Virus record (IMG/VR): IMGVR_UViG_3300045988_178965
Span: 1 to 64,000 of that record
Length of the DNA stretch: 64,000 bases
Strand: one strand, 5' to 3'
Origin: a virus
Shown piece after piece: positions 6,195 to 63,980 of the stretch. The stretch's first letter is position 1. Every line of letters starts with the position of its first letter. The notes beneath the pieces were generated by a model. That model saw nothing but the letters and a program-made list of their open reading frames with translations. It searched no databases and had not been told where the DNA came from. Made by a program: the position numbers and the translations under genes.

Positions 6195-8450
6195 ATGGCC
6201 ACATATCAACACTTACCAGGTGTAAACCTAGAGCTTCTGGATGGTAACCTTCGTCTTGACCAGACCGATAGCTCTCCTCGCGTACTTATTATCGGTCGCG
6301 CAGAAAAGGGTCTAACTAATGCACTGTATCCAGTAACTGACACCAACCGTGCAGCCGCTGTATTCGGTCAAGACTCTCCATTAATCCGTAAGATGTCAGA
6401 AGCTCTTATCGGCGGTGCCCGTAGAGTTTCTCTGTATCGTATTGGTGGTAAGCAAGCTAAACTGAAAAATATCTTCGGTAAAGACAGCTATCTTGCTGCA
6501 GTAGAGGCATCAGTATCAGCAGTAGACAATCTTAAAGTATACGTTGGTCCTCGTCCAAATAACGACGGTAAAGCATGTCTGATCGTATTTAAGGGCAACG
6601 AAATCGTATACTCTAACGTTCCAGGTTCAGAAATTAACCGTAACCAAGTAGAAGTATTTGGTTTTGACCCTGAGACTAAAGTTAAGATTGGTACACCAAC
6701 CGAACCAATCCCATTCTCTGAAGTTATCCTGAAAGAATACAGCCGCACTGCTAAGTTCGTTGGCAATGGTACTACTACCAAATTCAGCCTACCGGGCGTA
6801 ACAAAAACAGACGAAGTTACTGTTAAAAAATTAACTGTTGCTGGTCAAGATAAAAACTCTGGATCAGATTTCTCTGTAAAAATCGATAAAACTACATCTT
6901 CTCAGTATGTAGAGTTTACTACTGCTCCAGAGCAATCACAAGAAATTCAAGTTCTTTATTCATTCAAATCTACTGGTAAGGTTGCAGGTTCTGCAGTATT
7001 TATCGGTAACGGTACTAAAGATGAATTTGTTCTGCCAGGAACCAAGAAAACCTACGAAGTTACACTTGACGTAGTTAAAGTTGCCGGTCAAGATAAAACT
7101 GACACTGCGACTGCACAAGATGACAGCAACGGTTCTGATACCAAAACATTAAAATTGACCGAAGCTCCTAGCGAACAAAGTTCAGTGATCGTAGAATATA
7201 CCATCGACACTAAACGTGAAACCGTTGTTGGTGAGTATGAAGAGGGTGAAGATAACATCAACACCACTTGGAAAAACTACTACGAATTACTGCACACAGC
7301 TTTGGCTGAGTTGGAATCTGTTAACGCTATCTCTGTTGTAACCGACTACGCTGTAATTGATGCTCCAAACATCGCAGATGGTTCTAACGATCTTGATCGT
7401 CTGGACTACGTTTACGTTTCTGAAGATAACGGTGAGCTGAAATACGAATGGTCAACAGAAAAAGTTCTGTACCGTAAAAACCGCGGCACTGCTACCACTT
7501 CAGATCCTGCTGAAGCAGACATCAACGGTAATGGACAGCCAATTGTTCATAGACGTTACAACGAAGCAAACTTTGCACACCTGCTGGCTAACTTCGCTAA
7601 CACTATTTCTGAGAATGAACAATTCTGTCTAGTTACAATTGGTGCAACAATGCCACGTTCATTGTCTCAATACGAAGTTAACCGCTGGATTGGCTCTCCT
7701 GCAACTTATGATGCACTTGGAAACATCGTATCTAACGGTACAGGTCTGCTAGGACTGCGCAATATGGTTGAACGCGCTGACACACGTCGCGGCTTCTATA
7801 AAACCATTTCTGGCTTCGTAGACGGCGCTATTGTAACAGACTCTAACGGTGCACCAATTAATATTGGTAAATTCCTGTCTGTTGTTCCACAAGTAATCGT
7901 AACTCCATCTTACTCTTCTGCTGGTTCTAACACCATTGTTACTAACGGTGCAGCAGTTTATGCCGGTCTGATTACTACTATCGACGCCAGCGTATCTACT
8001 ACCAACATGTTGATCCCTCGTATCTCATTGCCAGGTGAAATCAAAAAACTGAAACTTGACCAACTAACCGGTGCAGGCTATGTCTTCTTCAAGACTACCA
8101 ACAACAGCGTTCGCGTAGTTTCAGGTGAACTGGCCACAACCGCCGATTCAGACTACCGTCTGCTTTCAACCACTATGGCTGTTGCTGAGGCATCTAACGC
8201 TGTACGTGATGTTGTTCAACCGTTCATCGGTCGTGGCTTGACAGAGGCGACTCTGGCTGCTGTTGACGTAGCTATTGAAGGCGCTCTGCAACGTCTGGTT
8301 GAGCAAGGACACATTGTAAAATATCTGCATGTAGTAAATCAACGTCCTATCGTTAATGGACGTGCAAGTCTGGACGTAGCTCTTACTATCGTTCCTGCAT
8401 TTGAACTGCGTGAGATTAACGTAGCCGTTAAACTGGCCCTAGAAATCTAA
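6195..8450 (+). CDS. tail sheath protein (751 aa) with a tandem internal domain duplication
   Basis: Lies directly upstream of the tube-family genes. The C-terminal region (GYVFF...SDYRLLST...VRDVVQPFIG...GALQRLVEQGHIVKY...NGRASLDVALTIVPAFELREINVAV) follows the pattern of sheath C-terminal domains recalled from T4 gp18-type proteins. Codon usage looks strongly expression-adapted (cgt/ctg/ggt/acc), unlike the neighbouring genes. Two insertion-domain repeats of about 72 aa at nt 6750-6965 and 6990-7205. Confidence 0.72.
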   Translation: MATYQHLPGVNLELLDGNLRLDQTDSSPRVLIIGRAEKGLTNALYPVTDTNRAAAVFGQDSPLIRKMSEALIGGARRVSLYRIGGKQAKLKNIFGKDSYLAAVEASVSAVDNLKVYVGPRPNNDGKACLIVFKGNEIVYSNVPGSEINRNQVEVFGFDPETKVKIGTPTEPIPFSEVILKEYSRTAKFVGNGTTTKFSLPGVTKTDEVTVKKLTVAGQDKNSGSDFSVKIDKTTSSQYVEFTTAPEQSQEIQVLYSFKSTGKVAGSAVFIGNGTKDEFVLPGTKKTYEVTLDVVKVAGQDKTDTATAQDDSNGSDTKTLKLTEAPSEQSSVIVEYTIDTKRETVVGEYEEGEDNINTTWKNYYELLHTALAELESVNAISVVTDYAVIDAPNIADGSNDLDRLDYVYVSEDNGELKYEWSTEKVLYRKNRGTATTSDPAEADINGNGQPIVHRRYNEANFAHLLANFANTISENEQFCLVTIGATMPRSLSQYEVNRWIGSPATYDALGNIVSNGTGLLGLRNMVERADTRRGFYKTISGFVDGAIVTDSNGAPINIGKFLSVVPQVIVTPSYSSAGSNTIVTNGAAVYAGLITTIDASVSTTNMLIPRISLPGEIKKLKLDQLTGAGYVFFKTTNNSVRVVSGELATTADSDYRLLSTTMAVAEASNAVRDVVQPFIGRGLTEATLAAVDVAIEGALQRLVEQGHIVKYLHVVNQRPIVNGRASLDVALTIVPAFELREINVAVKLALEI

Positions 8451-55644: not shown

Positions 55645-55989
55645 TTATCGAACAATAGATCCTAAAATTTTAATAAGCATTGCTGCATCGCGCTTATGTT
55701 TATGAGCATCCAATTTTCGCTGATGTCTTTCTAAAACGGAGACATCATCCTCTTTATCGATAATGCTTGCCATAGTAATAGCGCCAATGAGCTTCAAGAA
55801 CTCTTCAAAGTCTTTTTGATCGCCATCCATATCCTCGCAATCAAACACTTTTGTTGGAACAACTTCTACAGGCTCGTCATCTTGGACTGCTCTTAAATAT
55901 CCAAGTCCGTTAACAGCTTTACTTCGTTCTGCGGCTTTATGAGCCGACATAATTTTGGCGATATCGCCAGGGGATACGTTTAAAATCAT
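55645..55989 (-). CDS. hypothetical protein
   Basis: 114-aa ORF immediately downstream of nrdA, with a 1-nt overlap. Confidence 0.45.
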   Translation of the reverse strand: MILNVSPGDIAKIMSAHKAAERSKAVNGLGYLRAVQDDEPVEVVPTKVFDCEDMDGDQKDFEEFLKLIGAITMASIIDKEDDVSVLERHQRKLDAHKHKRDAAMLIKILGSIVR

Positions 55990-58319
55990 TATAGTTTACA
56001 CGCTACACAATCGTCTTCATCGTCTGTGTTAGAATCATCCGGAATCTCAGTAATATTACCTTCCATAATATCAGAAGATTGACCATCATAGTTATTATTA
56101 TAATACATGGTTTTACCTCCTAATAGGTAATGCAGGTAAATATCCCAAGATACAACTGATGCGGGGACCTTGTTGTTAGGATAATTCTGTTTATTGTAAT
56201 ATGTATTAACAGAGATAGCCTGATCGGTATATCTCTGAATAACAGCATAAGTTTTAATTAATGCCTCATTTGAAGTATGATCCCAAATGCGGTCATATTT
56301 ATCTTTGAGTCGCGCCAATTCAGGCACTACAAATTTAGCTTGTCTATTCTTGCCGCCCTTAGAAATAATCAATTCTCGTATTGGTTCAATACCATTAGTA
56401 GTACCAGAACCGGAAATCTTAGCACTTGTTTCAGCAGGGAACATAGCAATCATAGATGCATTTCTAACACCATGTTTAGCAATTCTAGCACGGAGACTTG
56501 TCCAATCTAATTTCTCCTCATAATTAAATAAAGAGTTATACATAGGAGTAGTCATATCTTTTGGAAGTTTACCTTCCGCCCATAGCGTATCTTTGAATGC
56601 ATCACAGGCGCCACGTTCTTCAGCAAGATTAACTGAAGCACTAATAACTCCATAGGAGAAATGTTGCATCCATTCATCTAACAGTTCATAGCAATTGGAA
56701 TATTTTTTATCATTCTTAGCTAACCAATATGCAAGACCTGTAATACCAATGCCGATAGGTCTAAATAATCTGTTATGTTCCTCAGCAGCCGGGAAAGGAT
56801 GCTCTTGGAAATCTAGCAAATTATCAACAGCACGCATAGTTACATAAGCTACACGTTTCAAATCTTCGGGATTATCAAAAGCCCCAAAGTTAATACCACT
56901 CAAATTACATAAAGCAATCAATCCCTCTTGCTTGTATGTCTTACTTACAGGATCATAAGTTCGTGTAAGTCCTTGAGTTGGAAGAACAATTTCCTGGCAG
57001 AGGTTACTCTGCTTAATGGGATATTTGTCGGTATTATACATAGAATGGCGATTAATATTATCCGCAAACCCCACATATACTCGACCAGTACCAAATCTTT
57101 CTTCCACCAATAGGTCCATTAGGTGTCGTGCATTAATAGTGCCAACAGCCTCGCCTTTATTCATGGCTCTGGTGTAAGCATCATAAAAATGAGAATCAGA
57201 ACAGCTAGAATAAAAAGCATCATAAACCTCTTTAGAAATGTGTGGAGAGAACAAGCCAATATCTCTATTTTCTGCGGCGGCCTTAAGCATGAATCCGTTT
57301 AAAAATATAGAGTGATCAGAATGTTTCATTGATTCAGAATCCTTCTTCATATTGTTTTTATAAAGAAGTATTTCTTCAACATCTGGGTGCAGACCCCACC
57401 AGTTAAATGTTAGCGAGCCCTTCCGAATTGAGCCTTGACTGCATGACAATGCGCTATACTCAATAGATTTAGCGTGATAGAGAGCTCCACTATTTACAGC
57501 GGCACCATTTCTAATTGCCGCATTACGTTCTCTTAATTTAGATGAACCAATACCAAGGCCAGCTCCAAGTGTTGCATATTTACGGGCAGCAGTTGCTACC
57601 TCGCCAATAGAGTCGATAGAGTCATCAGATTCAATCAGAACACATGAACTAAAACTACGAGTAGGCTTTCTCAGATTTGCAATATGGGGAGTCGGTACAT
57701 TTACCCGTCCAAGAGACATATTGTCATAATGTTCTTTAACAAAACTTAGGCGATCAGTATAAGCATCGCCATCATCATTGATAAAATACATCATTGCTGC
57801 AACCATATACGAAATCTGTGGAGTTTCGTAATATTCTTTGGTTTTGGCATTCTTCGCTAAATATTTAGCCTCCCATTCGACAGCACCAGAGATAGAATAC
57901 ATCATATCTCTATTGTGATCGATTTGCTTATTCAGCCACTCTATTTCATCCTCAGAGTATTTTTCAAGAATAATCTTATCATACACTCCAAGTCTTGTAT
58001 TCTTCTTAATAACGGAAAGCAGATTCTTAGGCTCAAAATCGCCATAGACATATTTACGCATATTACAAAGAAGAATACGGCCAGCCACAATAGCATAATC
58101 AGGATGCTCTTCATCAATTAAATTATTAGCACTGGTTAACAATGCCCCATTAATTTCTTCAGTAGTTATCCCATCATAAAACATGATGTTGCTATTTACA
58201 GCAATTTCAGAAACAGAAACGTTATCCAACCCTGCACATACAAATCCCAGGAAAGAATTAATACGTTCAGGGTTGTAAGGAACAACATCACCATTTCTTT
58301 TGGTAACATTGAATCCCAT
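55989..58319 (-). CDS. nrdA: ribonucleotide reductase class Ia, alpha subunit
   Basis: N-terminal ATP-cone (VTKRNGDVVPYNPERI). Motifs FSSCVLIES, QSNLCQEIVLPT (catalytic Cys/Glu) and MFPAETSAKISGSGTTNGIEPI. C-terminal redox Cys pair CVACKL. Confidence 0.92.
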   Translation of the reverse strand: MGFNVTKRNGDVVPYNPERINSFLGFVCAGLDNVSVSEIAVNSNIMFYDGITTEEINGALLTSANNLIDEEHPDYAIVAGRILLCNMRKYVYGDFEPKNLLSVIKKNTRLGVYDKIILEKYSEDEIEWLNKQIDHNRDMMYSISGAVEWEAKYLAKNAKTKEYYETPQISYMVAAMMYFINDDGDAYTDRLSFVKEHYDNMSLGRVNVPTPHIANLRKPTRSFSSCVLIESDDSIDSIGEVATAARKYATLGAGLGIGSSKLRERNAAIRNGAAVNSGALYHAKSIEYSALSCSQGSIRKGSLTFNWWGLHPDVEEILLYKNNMKKDSESMKHSDHSIFLNGFMLKAAAENRDIGLFSPHISKEVYDAFYSSCSDSHFYDAYTRAMNKGEAVGTINARHLMDLLVEERFGTGRVYVGFADNINRHSMYNTDKYPIKQSNLCQEIVLPTQGLTRTYDPVSKTYKQEGLIALCNLSGINFGAFDNPEDLKRVAYVTMRAVDNLLDFQEHPFPAAEEHNRLFRPIGIGITGLAYWLAKNDKKYSNCYELLDEWMQHFSYGVISASVNLAEERGACDAFKDTLWAEGKLPKDMTTPMYNSLFNYEEKLDWTSLRARIAKHGVRNASMIAMFPAETSAKISGSGTTNGIEPIRELIISKGGKNRQAKFVVPELARLKDKYDRIWDHTSNEALIKTYAVIQRYTDQAISVNTYYNKQNYPNNKVPASVVSWDIYLHYLLGGKTMYYNNNYDGQSSDIMEGNITEIPDDSNTDDEDDCVACKL

Positions 58320-58320
58320 A

Positions 58321-58635
58321 TTATTCGCCTTCTTGATTTAAATATTTAACCAATTCAATAACTTTGGCTCGAAGATCTTTGAACTCTACATGCTCATAAG
58401 AGCCTGTATCATCACGGTCAATAAAGATTTGAGGGACAGAGCGCGGCTCTGGCTTACCCATATCTTCAAACCGCTTCTTCATTTCATCCATTTCAGCTTT
58501 ACCGGCATCAACATAAGTTTTTTCAAAATAGAATCGCTTATGCTTATCAATATATTTAGTGCCGAGATTTTCTAAGATGGATGTAGCCTGTACACATTGT
58601 GGACAGCTAGATTTGGAATAAATCAAAATTTTCAT
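58321..58635 (-). CDS. glutaredoxin/NrdH-like redoxin
   Basis: 104 aa with the active-site motif SCPQC near the N-terminus and a downstream VPQIFI motif. Located between nrdB and nrdA. Confidence 0.8.
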   Translation of the reverse strand: MKILIYSKSSCPQCVQATSILENLGTKYIDKHKRFYFEKTYVDAGKAEMDEMKKRFEDMGKPEPRSVPQIFIDRDDTGSYEHVEFKDLRAKVIELVKYLNQEGE

Positions 58636-59096
58636 TGACTTTTCTCCGTGCTATATTTGTTAAACGCGGATAGAATCTCTCCATAATTGGTTTGAGACTT
58701 ATCAATAATCCCACGTTCATAATCTGTCTTCTCTGCTTCTTGCGGAGCCACTTGCTCTTTTTCTTCACCATTCCAAGCTGTAACCCAAGGAATAGGATTC
58801 TTAGTAACAGATGGAATACCACATAGTTCTTCTAATGGCGGTAACCCATATTTCTTTAGTCTTGAGGTGGCCAAATAACACAAATACTCTTCAAGAATAG
58901 ACTGGTTAAATGCAAAGATTTCGCCTTCTTTGAAAAGATATTTACACCATTCAAGCTCTTCTGTTATAGCGTCACGCCATATTCCCTCCACTGCACGTTT
59001 AACCTCGTCTTCTTCAGAGACCATCAAAAAGTCAATATCGTCAACAGGTAAAATGCTTAGAAGATTATTTGTAATCGCCACATGAATGTTCTCATC
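58632..59096 (-). CDS. nrdB: ribonucleotide reductase beta subunit, exon 2
   Basis: The reading frame is open upstream of the track ORF's GTG and reads DENIHVAITNN.., which continues exon 1 (..ARIIKLINR|DENIH). Together these reconstitute the second iron-ligand motif R-D-E-x-x-H. The spliced and intein-free product would be about 378 aa, versus about 376 aa for E. coli NrdB. Confidence 0.85.
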   Translation of the reverse strand, partial: DENIHVAITNNLLSILPVDDIDFLMVSEEDEVKRAVEGIWRDAITEELEWCKYLFKEGEIFAFNQSILEEYLCYLATSRLKKYGLPPLEELCGIPSVTKNPIPWVTAWNGEEKEQVAPQEAEKTDYERGIIDKSQTNYGEILSAFNKYSTEKSQ

Positions 59097-59845
59097 CAGT
59101 AATGTTCAATAGGGTTCGCTACTTCCCTACCAGCTTATTAAGCTTCTGCATATCGCTATGCAGCTCAGACTATATCATTATCTCCGTATTGGAGATATCT
59201 GGCTTTTCGAGTGCCAATAGCTTGCACCCTACGCCTTTCGGCTAGTCGTTGCTCTACTTTTATTCGATTTAGGAAATTTGCCGTATTTTTCTGTAATATG
59301 GCTCCATCGTTTATGCCCTCTTATAAGAGAAACATATCTAGGATGTAAGGAATATAGCGACGCTATACTTTCGTTATCATATCCAGAAAGAAGTAATTCG
59401 CAAATCTTTTCAACATCAGGCTCAGTCAATTTTGACATAGCGTTTCTTGAGCCTAAATTTGTTTTAATACCGATTCGAAATGCATGCTTAAGATTTTCAG
59501 ATTTAGTAACTATTTCTAAATTAGACAAATCATTATTAGTCTTATTACCATCTATATGGTTAACCTCCATGCCAGGAGGTATATCGCCAATAAATGTTTT
59601 AACAACTAGTCTATGAACTAAACCAAGTTTAGAGCCCAGCATATAATACCCGGCCTTTGTCATACAATGTTTCATAAACTTGTTACTAATTTTTGAATAA
59701 ACACGCCCATCGGTGTAAACAATATATTTTCCTATATCTTTATATTTCATAGTTGTAAAAATAGATCAGGATTGTCTACTAGAGATGTCCCCTGAGTTAA
59801 CCAGATTTTCGACTAGGGTCGCCCCTAGAAGCCGCCATATTTTTA
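59097..59845 (-). mobile_element. group I intron interrupting nrdB (749 nt), carrying an HNH endonuclease ORF
   Basis: The 5' exon ends in U (..AACCGU|UAAAAAUAUGGCGG), which can pair with the internal GCGG guide to give a U-G wobble. The intron ends in G (..ACUG|GAU). GNRA-capped hairpins CUAGGG-GCGA-CCCUAG and CUGCAUA-GCGA-UAUGCAG. GAUAUAGUC matches the conserved group I S element, and a P7-like AGAC/GUCU pairing is present. Confidence 0.8.
59229..59750 (-). CDS. HNH homing endonuclease (intron-encoded, I-HmuI-like architecture)
   Basis: NUMOD4-like N-terminus (YIVYTDGRVYS). HNH core HRLVVKTFIGDIPPGMEVNHIDGNKTNNDLSNLEIVTKSENLKHA. C-terminal helix-turn-helix-like segment. Confidence 0.85.
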   Translation of the reverse strand: MKYKDIGKYIVYTDGRVYSKISNKFMKHCMTKAGYYMLGSKLGLVHRLVVKTFIGDIPPGMEVNHIDGNKTNNDLSNLEIVTKSENLKHAFRIGIKTNLGSRNAMSKLTEPDVEKICELLLSGYDNESIASLYSLHPRYVSLIRGHKRWSHITEKYGKFPKSNKSRATTSRKA

Positions 59846-61405
59846 ACGGTTAATGAGCTTGATAATACGTGCAAGTCCAGGTAATTTACCCATTTGTCCA
59901 AAAATAAAGCTACATGCAAAAGAAACCTGGAACCTGATAGACTCTAAAGCGTTAGCAGTATGCAATGCAAGCCATATAGCTCTTACAGCATCAATACGCT
60001 GGCATCTGCCCTCGTAATAATCTTGAACCTTTTGGATAGCATCATCATAGTATTTACAAATACTATCTTTACATTGAACAATTTCCTGAATATCCATAAC
60101 AGTGTCCAACGTCTCTTTCGGATTAACAAAAGATTGTTGGATGATATGAGTATAGGAGAAAGAATGTAAGCAATTACCGGTAACAGAAGGAATACCTTTA
60201 TAGCGAATAACAAATGCGCCGGTAGGAACAGTTAAACAATAGACTTTGCCTTCATATTGCTCATAGGTTTTCTCAACAAGGTCACCACGAACAGTATCTT
60301 CATCACTAACAAATAGAATATATCCACCTTCTTCTTCTTTAAATGTAGAATGAATTCCAGACATCAAAAGTAATGCTTGAATATCATCAATAATTTCTTT
60401 ACGCTCAACCCAAAGGTTATTTTCACCAGACTTCTCAACCATATTTTTAATTAAGCCAAGAAGCTGATAACCTTTAAGGTAAGTCATCGAAGAAAGAGGC
60501 AATACATCAGTAAGGCGATCACAATAGGCATCTTTAATTGCTCCGTCTAATTGAAATTCAATGCGGTCATCTAGTACAAAATTTGGTTGCGCCAGATTTG
60601 ATAACAGATGTGCGGCGTATTTGTTTCTTCCATAAAAATGAAGCTCATCAGGAATATTTTCATCTGTTTTAAGATGATATCCAAGAATGGTTGAATATAT
60701 TTTAGCCGCAGTTATTGCATCAAATTCGCCACTAAATTCTTCATCTTCAAAAGCAGTTCCAGTCAATGGTAAACTAATCAGTTCATGTGGTTCAAAATTA
60801 TCCGCTTCTTCAAAAGCAAAAGAATTCGAAGTAATGAATGGCATTCGATGAGCTTTGGTCACGAACTGTTCAAAATTGCCATCAACAGATTTAAAACGAA
60901 TAAGCTCTTCGTTCTTATCATAAATATGAATCTTTTCAGGGCGAGTCCAATACAAGCCTCTATTGGTAGAGCGATACTGCGCAACCATAGTTTCCACGGT
61001 TACATCTTTGATATCGAGCCATCCCTTATCAGTAAGAACTTCAGTCCCTTCAGCCAAACACTCAAATAGGGACCATGTTTGAATAACACATTCAAGACTT
61101 GGATCGGCAACAGCGGGATTAAATACCGCAGTAGGAGCACGGCCCATAATGGAATCCAATAAGATTTGACGCTTAATATTAGAAATAACAATATGCTCTT
61201 CAGCCTTTGTGAGTAGGGGGAAATTGGTCCTATCATTAGTCATATCAATTTCCTCTGGCCTCCAAATCTTTTCGAGCTGCATTGTAAATAGATCTAAGAT
61301 AACCTTATATCTAGGGTTGTCAAAGCGTTGGACCGTAGCTCCTTGGCTGCGGTCCAAAAATAACGTTTTAGGAAACAATTCGTTTCCAAATACTGTACCT
61401 GTCAT
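59846..61405 (-). CDS. nrdB: ribonucleotide reductase beta subunit, exon 1 (includes an in-frame intein)
   Basis: Start taken at the ATG at 61405 (MTGTVFGNELF..), preceded by AAAGGA; the TTG at 61462 in the track ORF is unlikely. Motifs: WRPEEIDM, LLDSIMGR, WSLFE|[intein]|CLHSFSYTHII (first EXXH plus the radical Tyr), SFACSF, and IIKLINR at the exon end. Confidence 0.88.
60173..61060 (-). mobile_element. intein (296 aa) inserted in the first EXXH iron-ligand motif of NrdB
   Basis: Block A CLAEGTEVLTDKGW begins directly after the Glu of WSLFE. Block B is T-x-x-H (VTKAHRM). The C-terminal blocks read VYCLTVPTGAFVIRYKGIPSVTGN|C, with a terminal Asn and a +1 Cys. The penultimate residue is Gly rather than His. 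Removing it restores FE-CLH-SFSYTHII. Confidence 0.82.
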
Positions 61406-61610
61406 ATTAATTATTCCTTTTGTAATTATTGTAATAGGAACATCTGAAATTGCATTTCGCAATTAAAGGACGGTTTGCAAAAACCGTTGCATCCTGCAGG
61501 CGCCGGCCGCGGGATGCATGAATTCACCTCATTCTTAAATTTGGAACAAATTTAAGAATTGATGTATCACGAACCTCGATTCGTATAGTAAAAACAATAT
61601 TGTCAAAGAT

Positions 61611-61627
61611 CGGAAGGAATTCTTCCG
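61611..61627. repeat. CGGAAG-N5-CTTCCG hairpin repeat, copy 1
   Basis: gtcaaagatCGGAAGgaattCTTCCG. The conserved 5' flank (caaaga/caagg) is shared with copies 2 and 3. Confidence 0.8.
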
Positions 61628-61895
61628 CTTTGGGCCCGGCCTCACCTGGGGCCCAAAGGATCTGGATCAGGACGCAGTCCTGAAATTATTCTCTAGAATA
61701 ATTATCTAAATATTAATAGGCCTAAGCCCTTAAAGATAGAAGACCATAGAATCATCTTGACTTCGACAGAGTCTAGTCAACGAGCCACACGGCTTTAACA
61801 TGTTAGAATACCTTCTAACATGTTAAAATTAAATATACCATCAGCGTATATTTAATTTTATAGTCAAAGTATACTCATCCTAGGATGACAAAGAC

Positions 61896-61912
61896 CGGAA
61901 GGTATGCTTCCG
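61896..61912. repeat. CGGAAG-N5-CTTCCG hairpin repeat, copy 2
   Basis: gacaaagacCGGAAGgtatgCTTCCG. Confidence 0.8.
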
Positions 61913-62035
61913 TAAATCCGGACAGGACCAGATCCTAGTCCTTCCGGACTCCGTCGGACCCTTCGGGACGACGGGCGCATTATTTTGGTAAAATAATGCA
62001 AGTTTATATTAATGGACCTCAATCCATTTCAAGGT

Positions 62036-62052
62036 CGGAAGGCATGCTTCCG
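62036..62052. repeat. CGGAAG-N5-CTTCCG hairpin repeat, copy 3
   Basis: ttcaaggtCGGAAGgcatgCTTCCG. Confidence 0.8.
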
Positions 62053-62270
62053 CGAGGACGGGTGATCCCGGCCTTCGACGCAGCTCTGCAGCTCCGAATT
62101 ACCGCACGGAATTCGGACAGAGCTATTGGGTTTTTATAACAATCCTAAAATTGTATTGCCGACTCTTCCCTGGTCGGCCCGGGTGAAAGGAAAATCATCA
62201 TGCATTGTACTTAATTTAACTAAATCAAATACCTGGAGCTTAATCCAACGTCGCAATTATATTTTTATTT

Positions 62271-62759
62271 TTATGTGGCATTGCGATCAACCACACTTCT
62301 TTGTTTTTGTTCTCTATAACGCTTTGCCCTAATCTCCCTAGCTTTCTCTAAAACTGGATTTTCAGGATTCTTCATTATAGAGTTAAAATCATATTCGATG
62401 TCAGGATAAGGAACTGAATCTATAATAGCCTTTAATTCTTCCTTACTCTTAGGGCATTCTGATTGGAGTATTCTAACAAGTTTGATGCCAGATTCTTCGG
62501 CCAGCAAATCCTTTTTCTTGTCCTTGAACTGCTGCCATCTAAAACCATTGGCATCTTTGTGAAAGTGTTCAATAAATTCAACATGCTGCCGGCCATCCAA
62601 TTCTATAACTATTCCCATTTCTTTCACAAAACAGTCATATCTCGTCCCATCTGGAAGACAAGCTTCATATATAACATTGCATGTAGGATAAAGCTGACAT
62701 AGATATTCATAGATAATACGCTGCTCATTTGAGCCCCTATTATCGAACCCCATAACCAA
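62271..62759 (-). CDS. PD-(D/E)xK-superfamily endonuclease (DUF559/Vsr-like), possible free-standing homing endonuclease
   Basis: 162 aa. The motif RYDCFVKEMGIVIELDGRQHVEF matches the D...(I/V)E-x-D-G-x-x-H signature of DUF559/Vsr-like nucleases. Basic C-terminal tail. Confidence 0.55.
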   Translation of the reverse strand: MVMGFDNRGSNEQRIIYEYLCQLYPTCNVIYEACLPDGTRYDCFVKEMGIVIELDGRQHVEFIEHFHKDANGFRWQQFKDKKKDLLAEESGIKLVRILQSECPKSKEELKAIIDSVPYPDIEYDFNSIMKNPENPVLEKAREIRAKRYREQKQRSVVDRNAT

Positions 62760-63069
62760 TGCCCTGGATATTGTTTAATTGGCCATGAGCTATGCCGTCA
62801 ATAATGCTTCCCAATCCATTATCATAAAAGAATTTACGATAAGCTTCAAACGCCTTATCATCATCAACTCTTTTAAAATTGTGGGTAGCAAATTTCCATA
62901 TAGCGTCTTTGTCGATTAGCTCATTGATATAGCAGGCGTTATATACCTTATCTACAATCAAGGCGACTTGGACGCCATCATCCTCAAGTACAGCTACAAC
63001 AACCTGATGGTCGAAGCTACCCTCTACATTGAATCCCATTCTTTCAGGGGCCATATGCACTATCTTCAT
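62740..63069 (-). CDS. hypothetical protein
   Basis: 109-aa ORF that overlaps its neighbours on both sides. Confidence 0.4.
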   Translation of the reverse strand: MKIVHMAPERMGFNVEGSFDHQVVVAVLEDDGVQVALIVDKVYNACYINELIDKDAIWKFATHNFKRVDDDKAFEAYRKFFYDNGLGSIIDGIAHGQLNNIQGIGYGVR

Positions 63070-63367
63070 CTGAATCCTTTTCTAAACAATCTTTTTTAAT
63101 CTTGCATCTAATTAATATATATGTTTGCTCAATGAGAAGAAGAAATGTAACTAATGCTAGTATACCCAATATGAAAATAACAGGCGACATCAATAGTAAT
63201 GGCCAGGGGATAAATGAAGCTTCACCAGCAGTTTTTAATAATACTATTGGGAATATACCGGCAGTGAACCCAACGCCAATAAGTTTTAAATGCGAAAATG
63301 AAAATTCATTTTCATCTAGAGCGAGTTTGACTTTTCTGTTTTTACTTTTATTTGAACGAACTTTCAT
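63044..63367 (-). CDS. hypothetical membrane protein (two hydrophobic segments)
   Basis: 107 aa. Hydrophobic segments LKLIGVGFTAGIFPIVLL and LLLMSPVIFILGILALVTFLLLI. Confidence 0.45.
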   Translation of the reverse strand: MKVRSNKSKNRKVKLALDENEFSFSHLKLIGVGFTAGIFPIVLLKTAGEASFIPWPLLLMSPVIFILGILALVTFLLLIEQTYILIRCKIKKDCLEKDSDEDSAYGP

Positions 63368-63377
63368 ATCTTAGTCC

Positions 63378-63980
63378 TTAGAAATTATCAGGTATCATTT
63401 TTTGTATTCCACAATAACTGTGGTTTAAACAAGCAGAACATTTCCCTGGGTTTCCGCCAGAAGTAGAATCAGAATTTATGAATTTAATAGCAATTTCTTT
63501 TAAATGACCATCTGAAAAATTGGGCCTTTTGGTTACACTAACATTTGAATTAGGAGTCCATCCAAATGGAACTCTGATATCGTGTATTGTTTTAATAGTA
63601 ATACCAATATCCTCTATATGTTTAACAACAGCCATTGTTCTTGGGTTATTATAAGCATACATAGGATTGTTCCTATTATCCTGATGGAAAGGCGTTAATA
63701 GAAATATTTCAATACCATCATCCATCAGTAATACGAGATCGATTACAGTATGAAATGTTTTTCTTGGTTTTCTACCATAAGACCAAAATATAAGTTCGTC
63801 GTTTATAGCGCCGTTGGAATGATAAACCCTATCCGATATTTTGTCTAAAATTTCAGTAAGAAATCTGCGCAAAGATGCTTTATATGACTCTACACCTTCA
63901 TCTTCATTGGGAAGTATCTTTTTGATTTTACGTTCAAAATAAAGAATAGGTGCATTACTAGGTCCGTTCAAATCAGACAT
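63378..63980 (-). CDS. hypothetical protein with a C-terminal CxxCx5C cluster
   Basis: 200-aa ORF with an ATG start. The C-terminus reads GKCSACLNHSYCG. No other Cys in the protein, and no confident family assignment. Confidence 0.5.
   Translation of the reverse strand: MSDLNGPSNAPILYFERKIKKILPNEDEGVESYKASLRRFLTEILDKISDRVYHSNGAINDELIFWSYGRKPRKTFHTVIDLVLLMDDGIEIFLLTPFHQDNRNNPMYAYNNPRTMAVVKHIEDIGITIKTIHDIRVPFGWTPNSNVSVTKRPNFSDGHLKEIAIKFINSDSTSGGNPGKCSACLNHSYCGIQKMIPDNF

Follow-up and report, generated by a model that had tools for sequence, protein, structure and literature searches.

The ribonucleotide reductase (RNR) small-subunit gene, nrdB, that we describe here lies in a stretch of viral DNA from IMG/VR record IMGVR_UViG_3300045988_178965. 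We worked with positions 1 to 64,000 of that record, and "the window" below means this whole 64,000-nt stretch. The gene runs from 61405 to 58632 on the minus strand, inside a minus-strand block (55989-63980) in which several small open reading frames (ORFs) precede a 162-aa ORF, nrdB, a glutaredoxin gene and nrdA. A first-pass annotation, made by a model from the letters of the window, had proposed that nrdB is invaded by both an intein and a group I intron.

At the nrdB locus the minus strand carries, in this order, exon 1, a 173-codon ORF (59750..59229) and an ORF whose frame opens with DENIHVAIT. Exon 1 (61405..59846) is 1560 nt long and in frame; its reading frame is that of a 539-codon ORF starting from an upstream TTG, and the likely nrdB start is the ATG at 61405. 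Exon 1 ends with ...IIKLINR, and the intron opens directly with a TAA codon. Exon 2 (59096..58632, 465 nt including the stop) begins with DENIHVAIT and supplies the Glu and the His of the second ExxH motif as well as the C-terminal Tyr. When we joined 61405..59846 to 59096..58632 the frame was kept and gave a reading of 674 codons, and taking codons 116-411 out of that reading left 378 residues.

Translation and colinear alignment to NrdB structures place the N-extein (residues 1-115) at 61061..61405, minus strand. It ends in ...WSLFE; the final Glu corresponds to E. coli E115 and opens ExxH motif 1. The intein follows at 61060..60173, also on the minus strand (296 aa, CLAEGTEV...SVTGN and then Cys+1), as delimited by PDB sequence search, structure model and family alignment. 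The first part of the C-extein (59846..60172, minus strand; CLHSFSYTHII ... SFACSF ... IIKLINR), located by translation and structure alignment, holds the motif 1 His, the radical Tyr and the E204 counterpart, and ends in CCGT, which forms helix P1 of the intron. The intron itself, 749 nt of group I, subgroup IA, occupies 59845..59097 on the minus strand; Rfam, a helix table covering P1-P9.2, covariation and intron-less relatives all bear on it. Our recomputation gave the same figures as the first-pass annotation (nrdB at 58632-61405, a 296-aa intein, a 749-nt intron and a 378-aa product), and each of its motifs, WRPEE, FE|CLHSFSYTHII, SFACSF and LINR|DENIH, is present in the translation. It had also put one element exactly at each ExxH motif. 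This is right for the intein, which sits inside motif 1 (E|CLH), but the intron is one codon upstream of the motif 2 Glu (R|DENIH).

The spliced 378-aa product is matched by Pfam Ribonuc_red_sm in one stretch (E 6.5e-34), whereas the unspliced ORFs are matched as two fragments. Residues 20-360 align with solved class Ia NrdB structures (E 3.7e-69 and 1.1e-65), and the alignment is gapless at both junctions. At the intein junction, wslfe|clhsfsythii is aligned to wsfse-tihsrsythii, and at the intron junction iiklinr|denihvait is aligned to iikdiar-dealhltgt. We consider the insert boundaries to be fixed, because any other choice breaks the NrdB alignment. The counterparts of E. coli W48, D84, E115, H118, Y122, E204, E238, H241 and Y356 are all kept in the alignment to 1jpr/7ai8, so that the product has the di-iron ligands (D84, E115, H118, E204, E238, H241), Tyr122 and the radical-path residues W48/Y356 of a class Ia R2 protein.

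An alternative that the first-pass annotation had itself named is that the inserts are ordinary lineage-specific NrdB domains or linkers. We found nothing in favor of it and give it practically no chance. The inserts break metal-ligand motifs, and most NrdB genes do without them: in the 30 best matches listed, 90-98% of the 378-aa extein is covered, and in 27 of these the coverage is unbroken. One insert, whose first codon is a stop, does not code for NrdB; the other folds as an intein. Close relatives, described below, lack the intron. Together, the structure alignment, the intein fold and the intron-less relatives rule this alternative out.

The first insert is in frame within a continuous, conserved extein, and it has Cys1, a TxxH motif, a terminal Asn and a following Cys+1. 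Its key residues are Cys1, Thr68-x-x-His71 (T68-K-A-H71), Met73 (B:12), Cys275 (F:4), Thr294 (G:5), Gly295 and Asn296. When we searched PDB sequences with the full insert, the AceL NrdHF intein (6zgq) was the sole relative at E 0.002; with the central domain deleted, 6zgq was matched at E 9e-6 and was aligned from block A to block G. The AlphaFold model of the intein, made from a 26-row alignment, has a mean predicted local distance difference test score (pLDDT) of 90.1 and a predicted template modeling score (pTM) of 0.88. Its best Foldseek matches are TliVMA, PhoVMA, PI-PfuI, PI-SceI, PI-TkoII and AceL NrdHF (E 5e-11 to 1e-3), and on the Foldseek matches and the pLDDT the model has the HINT fold.

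We scanned 1.84 billion representatives with the intein using HMMER and obtained 1401 proteins at E <= 0.001, against 2 from a word-indexed protein search. The family alignment was made from 158 segments cut from 152 of the matching proteins, and its consensus reads C-x5-E-V-L-T-x2-G-W, TxxH-R-M, G-K-V-Y-C-L-T-V-P-x-G-x-F and S-V-T-G-N. The family-invariant residues C1, T68, H71, C275, G295 and N296 are all present in the window, and so is Cys+1. The first insert is a genuine intein between the Glu and the xxH of the first ExxH motif, and from its residues it is predicted to splice.

The splicing class of this intein is less simple. AceL NrdHF is an active class 3 intein in which Met-Cys-Thr replaces Trp-Cys-Thr, and it has no His at F:13 or G:6 (PMC7891396). 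Two class 3 marks are present in the window intein, where C275 aligns with C124(A) of 6zgq and T294 with its T144. The Trp at B:12 is replaced by Met73, which is the "MCT" variant of AceL NrdHF. The operational definition of class 3 is that position 1 has no Cys/Ser/Thr nucleophile (PMC7891396), and the window intein has Cys1; according to another source a position-1 nucleophile is merely not required in class 3 inteins (PMC5222942). In its residues the window intein mixes class 1 and class 3 signatures, and we call it a class 1/class 3 hybrid by sequence because it has Met73, Cys275, Thr294 and Gly295 plus Cys1 and Cys+1.

Three cysteines (Cys1, Cys275 and Cys+1) are placed in the active site of this intein. 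Redox gating through disulfide trapping is reported for the Mycobacterium smegmatis DnaBi1 intein (PMC6195587). A more adventurous idea is that an MCT-branch class 3 intein with Cys1 and Cys+1 is also a mechanistic hybrid, so that R2 could mature by either pathway or be redox-gated through a disulfide. We think this rather unlikely, but if redox gating were true, the phage's supply of deoxynucleoside triphosphates would be coupled to the reducing power of the glutaredoxin whose gene overlaps the nrdB stop. A Cys1-bearing, MCT class-3-like intein could also serve for the study of how splicing classes interconvert.

The central domain of the intein (residues ~101-255; 60296..60760, minus strand) was delimited by predicted secondary structure, Foldseek and motif columns. 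In the model, residues 115-252 have the double alpha-beta-beta-alpha-beta-beta-alpha layout of the LAGLIDADG type, and Foldseek matches the fold of this domain to TliVMA, PhoVMA, PI-PfuI and PI-SceI. In the window intein and in its close relative P0003, QA(D/E)G of the family has become ILGY (L126) and WDG of the family has become NMVE (V208). The catalytic Asp/Glu that closes each LAGLIDADG helix is thus missing in the window intein. The LAGLIDADG-type endonuclease is probably inactive, because both catalytic acidic residues are replaced.

The second insert matches the Rfam family RF00028 (Intron_gpI) at 59337..59146 (44 bits, E 8.8e-9). The 3' half of the Rfam alignment (P7, the P7.1/P7.2 insertion, P3', P8, J8/7 and P9) is convincing. 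For the 5' half, Rfam puts P2-P6 in the 3' end of the HNH ORF. We rejected this placement, as it squeezes P4-P6 into 15 nt, and the upstream 95 nt fit and covary. From covariation and the helix table, the 5' core (P1 loop and internal guide sequence, P2 with a GCGA loop, P3, P4, P5, P4' and P6) lies at 59751..59845, and the 3' core (P6', P7, P7.1, P7.2, P3', P8, J8/7, P7', P9, P9.1, P9.2 and the terminal G) at 59097..59262, both on the minus strand.

All of the helices P1-P9.2 can be drawn in the window intron. In P1, exon CCGU and intron UA are paired with UGGCGG (internal guide sequence 59837..59832), and the 5' splice site is after the U of a U.G pair; this pairing is kept in four homologues, with one compensatory change. 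P2 is CUAGGG-GCGA-CCCUAG, P3 is AUCUGG paired with CCAGAU at 59202..59197, and P6 is a 9-bp helix whose strands are 493 nt apart and enclose the ORF. Between P7 and P3', at 59242..59211, there are two extra helices, P7.1/P7.2 (GCC-GAAA-GGC and GUGC...GCAC), which place the intron in subgroup IA; such extra helices are the hallmark of that subgroup. The 3' splice site is after the terminal G, G59097, and the ligated exons restore the frame as LINR|DENIH. A minimum free energy fold of the ORF-deleted intron recovered P1, P2, P4, P5, P6, P7.1, P7.2, P8, P9, P9.1 and P9.2. With RNAalifold on four ORF-deleted introns from the identical site, we obtained 66 pairs, and 27 of the 66 have compensatory double changes. 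We read the second insert as a group I intron of subgroup IA that separates the Arg from the Asp of RDENIH, and this core predicts that it is self-splicing. The proposal that nrdB holds one protein-splicing and one RNA-splicing element therefore stands, on the HINT fold and signature residues of the intein and on the group I core with its covariation.

The ORF that is looped out of P6 (59229..59750, minus strand) encodes a 173-aa HNH endonuclease, as judged from Pfam, PHROG and protein identity. It scores 61.6 bits against Pfam HNH_3, above the curated cut-off of 24.8 (E 5.4e-17), and it matches PHROG 59 at E 5e-40. It is 43% identical over 92% of its length to yosQ, the equally long ORF of the SPbeta bnrdF intron, and it shares 44-47% identity with HNH genes of other phages, either intron-borne or free-standing. 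The last 34 nt of the ORF overlap P6', P7 and P7.1. The intron-less nrdB target sequence for the predicted HNH endonuclease would be ATTAACCGTGATGAGAAC; the L008/L009 variants, introduced next, read AGG|GAC.

No match was obtained when the 4.5-kb region was compared by megablast with 50,697 phage records, and the near relatives were reached through proteins instead. Scanning IMG/VR with the intein, we found two contigs of ~185 kb from the same metagenome (L008 and L009). These two and P0003, from the representative library, have an uninterrupted 674-aa NrdB in which the intein is present (78-83% identical) and the intron is absent. The first-pass annotation had suggested aligning the gene with uninterrupted relatives; in all three relatives LINRDENIH is contiguous, so the predicted exon junction is confirmed exactly. 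Both the intron and its HNH ORF are missing from L008, L009 and P0003, so their presence is sporadic among similar genomes, and the intron is polymorphic within this lineage. When IMG/VR was scanned for exact matches to the exon/intron junction, no other copy with the intron turned up.

The codons at the insertion site differ too. The Arg-Asp codons are AGG|GAC in the intron-less relatives and CGT|GAT in all four intron-bearing alleles; the nrdB of phage phiTE is intron-less and has CGT|GAT. An exon ending in G, as in AGG|GAC, cannot form the U.G pair of P1. We infer from these codons that CGT|GAT may have been co-converted when the intron arrived, or that AGG|GAC alleles may be poor targets. 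Closely related phages with and without the intron form a natural set that defines the homing site and in which HNH specificity (CGT|GAT vs AGG|GAC) could be tested.

Another intron is found in one of these relatives. In L009 (IMGVR_UViG_3300045988_164140), positions 6871-7098 are an ORF-less group I intron in nrdA with an Rfam score of 80.4 bits, above gathering. It is of the same type as the window's intron and interrupts nrdA at SCSQG|SIRKG, where the window's nrdA is uninterrupted. Intron content thus differs among three close relatives, as expected of mobile introns.

Further cases come from metagenomic proteins. The proteins P0014, P0016 and P0024 are exon-1-like NrdB products that have a first-site intein and stop at ...LI(A/S)R, which suggests that the same combination of intein and intron occurs in further uncultured phages. 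P0010, a metagenomic protein of 1020 aa, has both of its ExxH motifs interrupted by inteins of the window's family (NME|C...N|CLHSYSY and LIQRDE|C...N|CLHVAIT). Its extein is 64% identical to the window NrdB, and the best INPHARED phage match, among the matches listed, is 41% identical. Of the 158 segments in the family alignment, 33 interrupt R2 proteins at the first E|xxH and 20 at the second, so both of these pseudo-symmetric sites of R2 are used by one intein family. Within this clade of NrdB proteins, the second ExxH motif can be empty (L008 and L009), hold an intron (the window) or hold an intein (P0010). A speculation no less tentative than that on redox gating is that introns and inteins compete for the second ExxH target and immunize it.

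The double interruption of nrdB by an intein and an intron is not new, as it has already been published for Pectobacterium phage vB_PatM_CB7 (KY514263), where nrdB is annotated as CB7_197 / CB7_196 / CB7_195. The CB7 nrdB intron is spliced in vivo, which was shown by reverse transcription PCR and Sanger sequencing for the intron only (Buttimer et al. 2020, PMC7344957). Table 3 of that paper lists both nrdB elements, and the NrdB intein is called endonuclease-free (PMC7344957). In one paragraph of PMC7344957 the names NrdA and NrdB are interchanged; its Table 3, the GenBank annotation and our translation all identify CB7_195/197 as NrdB.

CB7 resembles the window in having an intein of the same family at the same E|xxH site (WAFSE|C...SVTGN|T-I-H) and a homologous group I intron at R|DE (CCCGT|GATGAA) with an HNH ORF in the same place. 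However, its extein is only distantly related, with ~40% identity for the nearest phages among the matches listed. The CB7 intein is ~30% identical to the window's, has Thr instead of Cys at +1 and keeps the QAEG/WDS LAGLIDADG-like motifs that the window intein has lost, and the CB7 intron HNH protein has 235 aa vs 173 aa in the window. The phiTE/CB7 NrdB intein (L001/L007) is ~322 aa long and has the LAGLIDADG-like motifs VAIQAEGS and EELAEWDSH. Going by these motifs, it may well carry an endonuclease domain, despite its "no homing endonuclease" label. Inteins of the same family are at the same E|xxH NrdB site in phages phiTE, CB7 and C-ZP2022.

With BLASTN, we found introns that interrupt nrdB at CCGT|GATGA in Serratia phage Sureiya (ON287370), Pectobacterium phage CB7 and Yersinia phage fHe-Yen9-04 (LT960551). 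Sureiya and fHe-Yen9-04 have IA introns homologous to the window's at R|DE, and the guide sequence GCGG pairs with exon CCGU. In Sureiya the intron ORF is an HNH protein 44% identical to the window's; in fHe-Yen9-04 it is GIY-YIG rather than HNH. Unlike the window, neither phage has an intein in nrdB. In GenBank, the nrdB genes of both are split into two coding sequences with a "hypothetical protein" or a "winged helix-turn-helix protein" between them (L003 is fHe-Yen9-04 and L004 is Sureiya).

An intron and an intein in one RNR gene have been known since 1998 from SPbeta bnrdE (Lazarevic et al. 1998; Derbyshire & Belfort 1998). The SPbeta pair differs from the window in being in the large-subunit gene (class Ib bnrdE), and bnrdF has an intron only. 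The bnrdF intron adjoins the RDEAIH motif, as in the window, although by our reading its site (LI|IRDE) is a few nucleotides upstream of R|DE, and like the window ORF its yosQ is a 173-aa HNH protein. For T4 nrdB, the likeness is a subgroup IA intron with an HNH-family ORF (I-TevIII) and a free-standing endonuclease gene nearby. T4 differs in its insertion site, which is after YVSFA, ~25 codons upstream, in having no intein and in having a truncated I-TevIII. We had considered whether the window intron is at the T4 nrdB intron site and rejected this, since the T4 site is after YVSFA.

For the intein, the closest known system is AceL NrdHF (PDB 6zgq; PMC7891396), which was a top structural match of the HINT part (TM-score 0.85 relative to the target). 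Like the window intein, it has the MCT triplet (Met B:12, Cys F:4, Thr G:5) and no penultimate His, its host is an R2 protein, and its insertion is directly after an ExxH Glu (SIRDE|SMHVE). AceL NrdHF is naturally split, has Ala1 and a free-standing GIY-YIG gene between its halves, and interrupts a class Ib NrdHF at its second ExxH motif. The window intein, in contrast, is contiguous, has Cys1 and a degenerate LAGLIDADG domain, and is in the first motif.

Taking these results together, we are highly confident that nrdB bears two independent selfish elements and that a working R2 needs both removed. At the RNA step, the 749-nt IA intron would self-splice and join ...AACCGU to GAUGAG..., which would restore LINR-DENIH. 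In unspliced RNA, translation would halt at the intron-opening TAA, and the product would be without the Glu and the His of the second ExxH motif. At the protein step, the 674-aa precursor would excise the 296-aa intein and join ...WSLFE to CLHSFSY..., rebuilding the first ExxH motif beside the radical tyrosine. The first-pass annotation had said that R2 activity depends on both RNA splicing and protein splicing, and from the sequence this can be soundly inferred. The intron is probably still able to home into intron-less nrdB alleles during co-infection, because its HNH endonuclease ORF is intact, and it may carry along, by co-conversion, the CGT|GAT exon bases on either side that P1 requires.

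Several points weigh against this interpretation. Both RNA splicing and protein splicing of the window's nrdB are predictions from sequence. The RF00028 score of 44 bits is under the family gathering score of 50, probably because the model is interrupted by the 493-nt ORF loop in P6, and we saw no strong P10 pairing by eye in the window intron. The penultimate His (G:6) of the intein is absent, with Gly295, invariant in this intein family, in its place. Pfam, PHROGs and NCBIfam do not recognize the intein (Pfam Intein_splicing E 0.056). Glu209 is close to motif 2 of the LAGLIDADG domain and could conceivably substitute there, and the loss of activity rests on alignment. Finally, the ratios of nonsynonymous to synonymous substitution (dN/dS) that we use below are rough, as synonymous sites are near saturation (dS of at least 1).

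The Rfam score under the gathering threshold, and a GTG-started ORF that spans exon 2 (58632..59081), would also suit a case where the 749 nt stay in the RNA. The gene would then be either a split nrdB whose two polypeptides assemble, as for the mobE-split nrdA of Aeromonas phage Aeh1, or a dead gene. Split RNR genes that work without splicing do exist (PMC3045599; discussed in PMC7344957). We still consider this very unlikely for the window. The IA core is complete and covaries heavily, the junction restores the frame and RDENIH exactly, and the homologous CB7 intron is spliced in vivo (PMC7344957). In a split protein, the iron ligands E204 and E238/H241 would fall on two chains, and the exteins on either side of the intron site are under strong purifying selection.

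The intein could also be one that no longer splices, leaving a 77-kDa dead precursor and a phage that relies on the host RNR. The missing penultimate His, the degenerate endonuclease motifs and the Pfam intein models below significance are what one would cite for this. The missing His is not disqualifying, because the active AceL NrdHF intein likewise lacks the penultimate His as well as the F:13 His (PMC7891396), and C1, T68, H71, C275, G295 and N296 plus Cys+1 are retained. The extein has a dN/dS of 0.003-0.03 against two relatives and the splicing blocks have 0.03-0.17, which, rough as these values are, indicates very strong purifying selection on the extein and is unlike a pseudogene. It follows from this selection that nrdB is in use while bearing the intein, and we regard a dead intein as highly improbable.

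We favor an intein that splices and has been inherited for a long time. Against the same two relatives, dN/dS is ~0.10-0.13 in the central domain, and the intein is at about 0.1. At synonymous sites, intein and exteins have diverged to a similar extent (dS around 1, near saturation), and therefore we believe that the intein has a long vertical inheritance and is still constrained. It is old and fixed in the lineage, as it is also in L008, L009 and P0003; it is probably immobile and may persist because it still splices.

An annotation pipeline would split this locus into two nrdB fragments, the first of them oversized, but it should be annotated as one intron- and intein-containing gene. RNR genes are hot spots for selfish elements, and this is a further case, here with both R2 iron-ligand motifs targeted. 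The window nrdB does not overturn current understanding and its arrangement is not very unusual, since the kind has been known since SPbeta bnrdE in 1998.

Two genes lie directly downstream of nrdB. The glutaredoxin gene (58635..58321, minus strand) was identified with Pfam, and its start ATG overlaps the nrdB stop (ATGA). nrdA (58319..55989, minus strand) matches the NCBIfam class 1a alpha model at E 2e-195, which is below that model's cut-off, and TIGR02506 above its cut-off.

Upstream of nrdB there is a gap (62270..61406, minus strand) of 866 nt from ATG to stop, or 808 nt if measured to the TTG-started ORF, and then the 162-aa ORF (62759..62271, minus strand), which is conserved in relatives. 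The first-pass annotation had called this ORF (62271-62759) a third nuclease gene. The ORF exists and has weak PHROG support, but it is a conserved neighbor that does not belong to the invasion. Among PHROGs it is matched by families labeled HNH or homing endonuclease (E 3e-13 and 3e-8); Pfam and NCBIfam give no match. The best Foldseek matches to its model (pLDDT 80) are PvuRts1I and Vsr / PD-(D/E)XK-like structures, which are non-significant at E of at least 0.05, and one source names a homologue "very-short-patch-repair endonuclease". A D42 ... E53-x-D55-G-x-x-H59 pattern like that of Vsr/DUF559 is conserved. Given this pattern, a Vsr-like fold is plausible, which makes the ORF a candidate nuclease. 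It is 58-89% identical to full-length homologues in the related contigs, so it appears to be a stable resident and not a sporadic element.

In the upstream gap (61463-62270) we also observed a TTGACA-like box preceded by a GC-rich hairpin (CGGAAG-N5-CTTCCG-NN-CTTTG) on the minus strand at 61604-61627, 61889-61912 and 62029-62052. There are 3 copies, with 0 expected by chance and none elsewhere in the window, and similar copies are upstream of nrdB in L008 (3029) and L009 (3087, 3368). These may be promoter/stem-loop regulatory cassettes. Elsewhere in the window, 1-52124 is a long run of plus-strand ORFs that includes proteins of 1186 to 1964 aa, in the opposite orientation to the nrd block, and it is presumably a structural or tail-fiber module.

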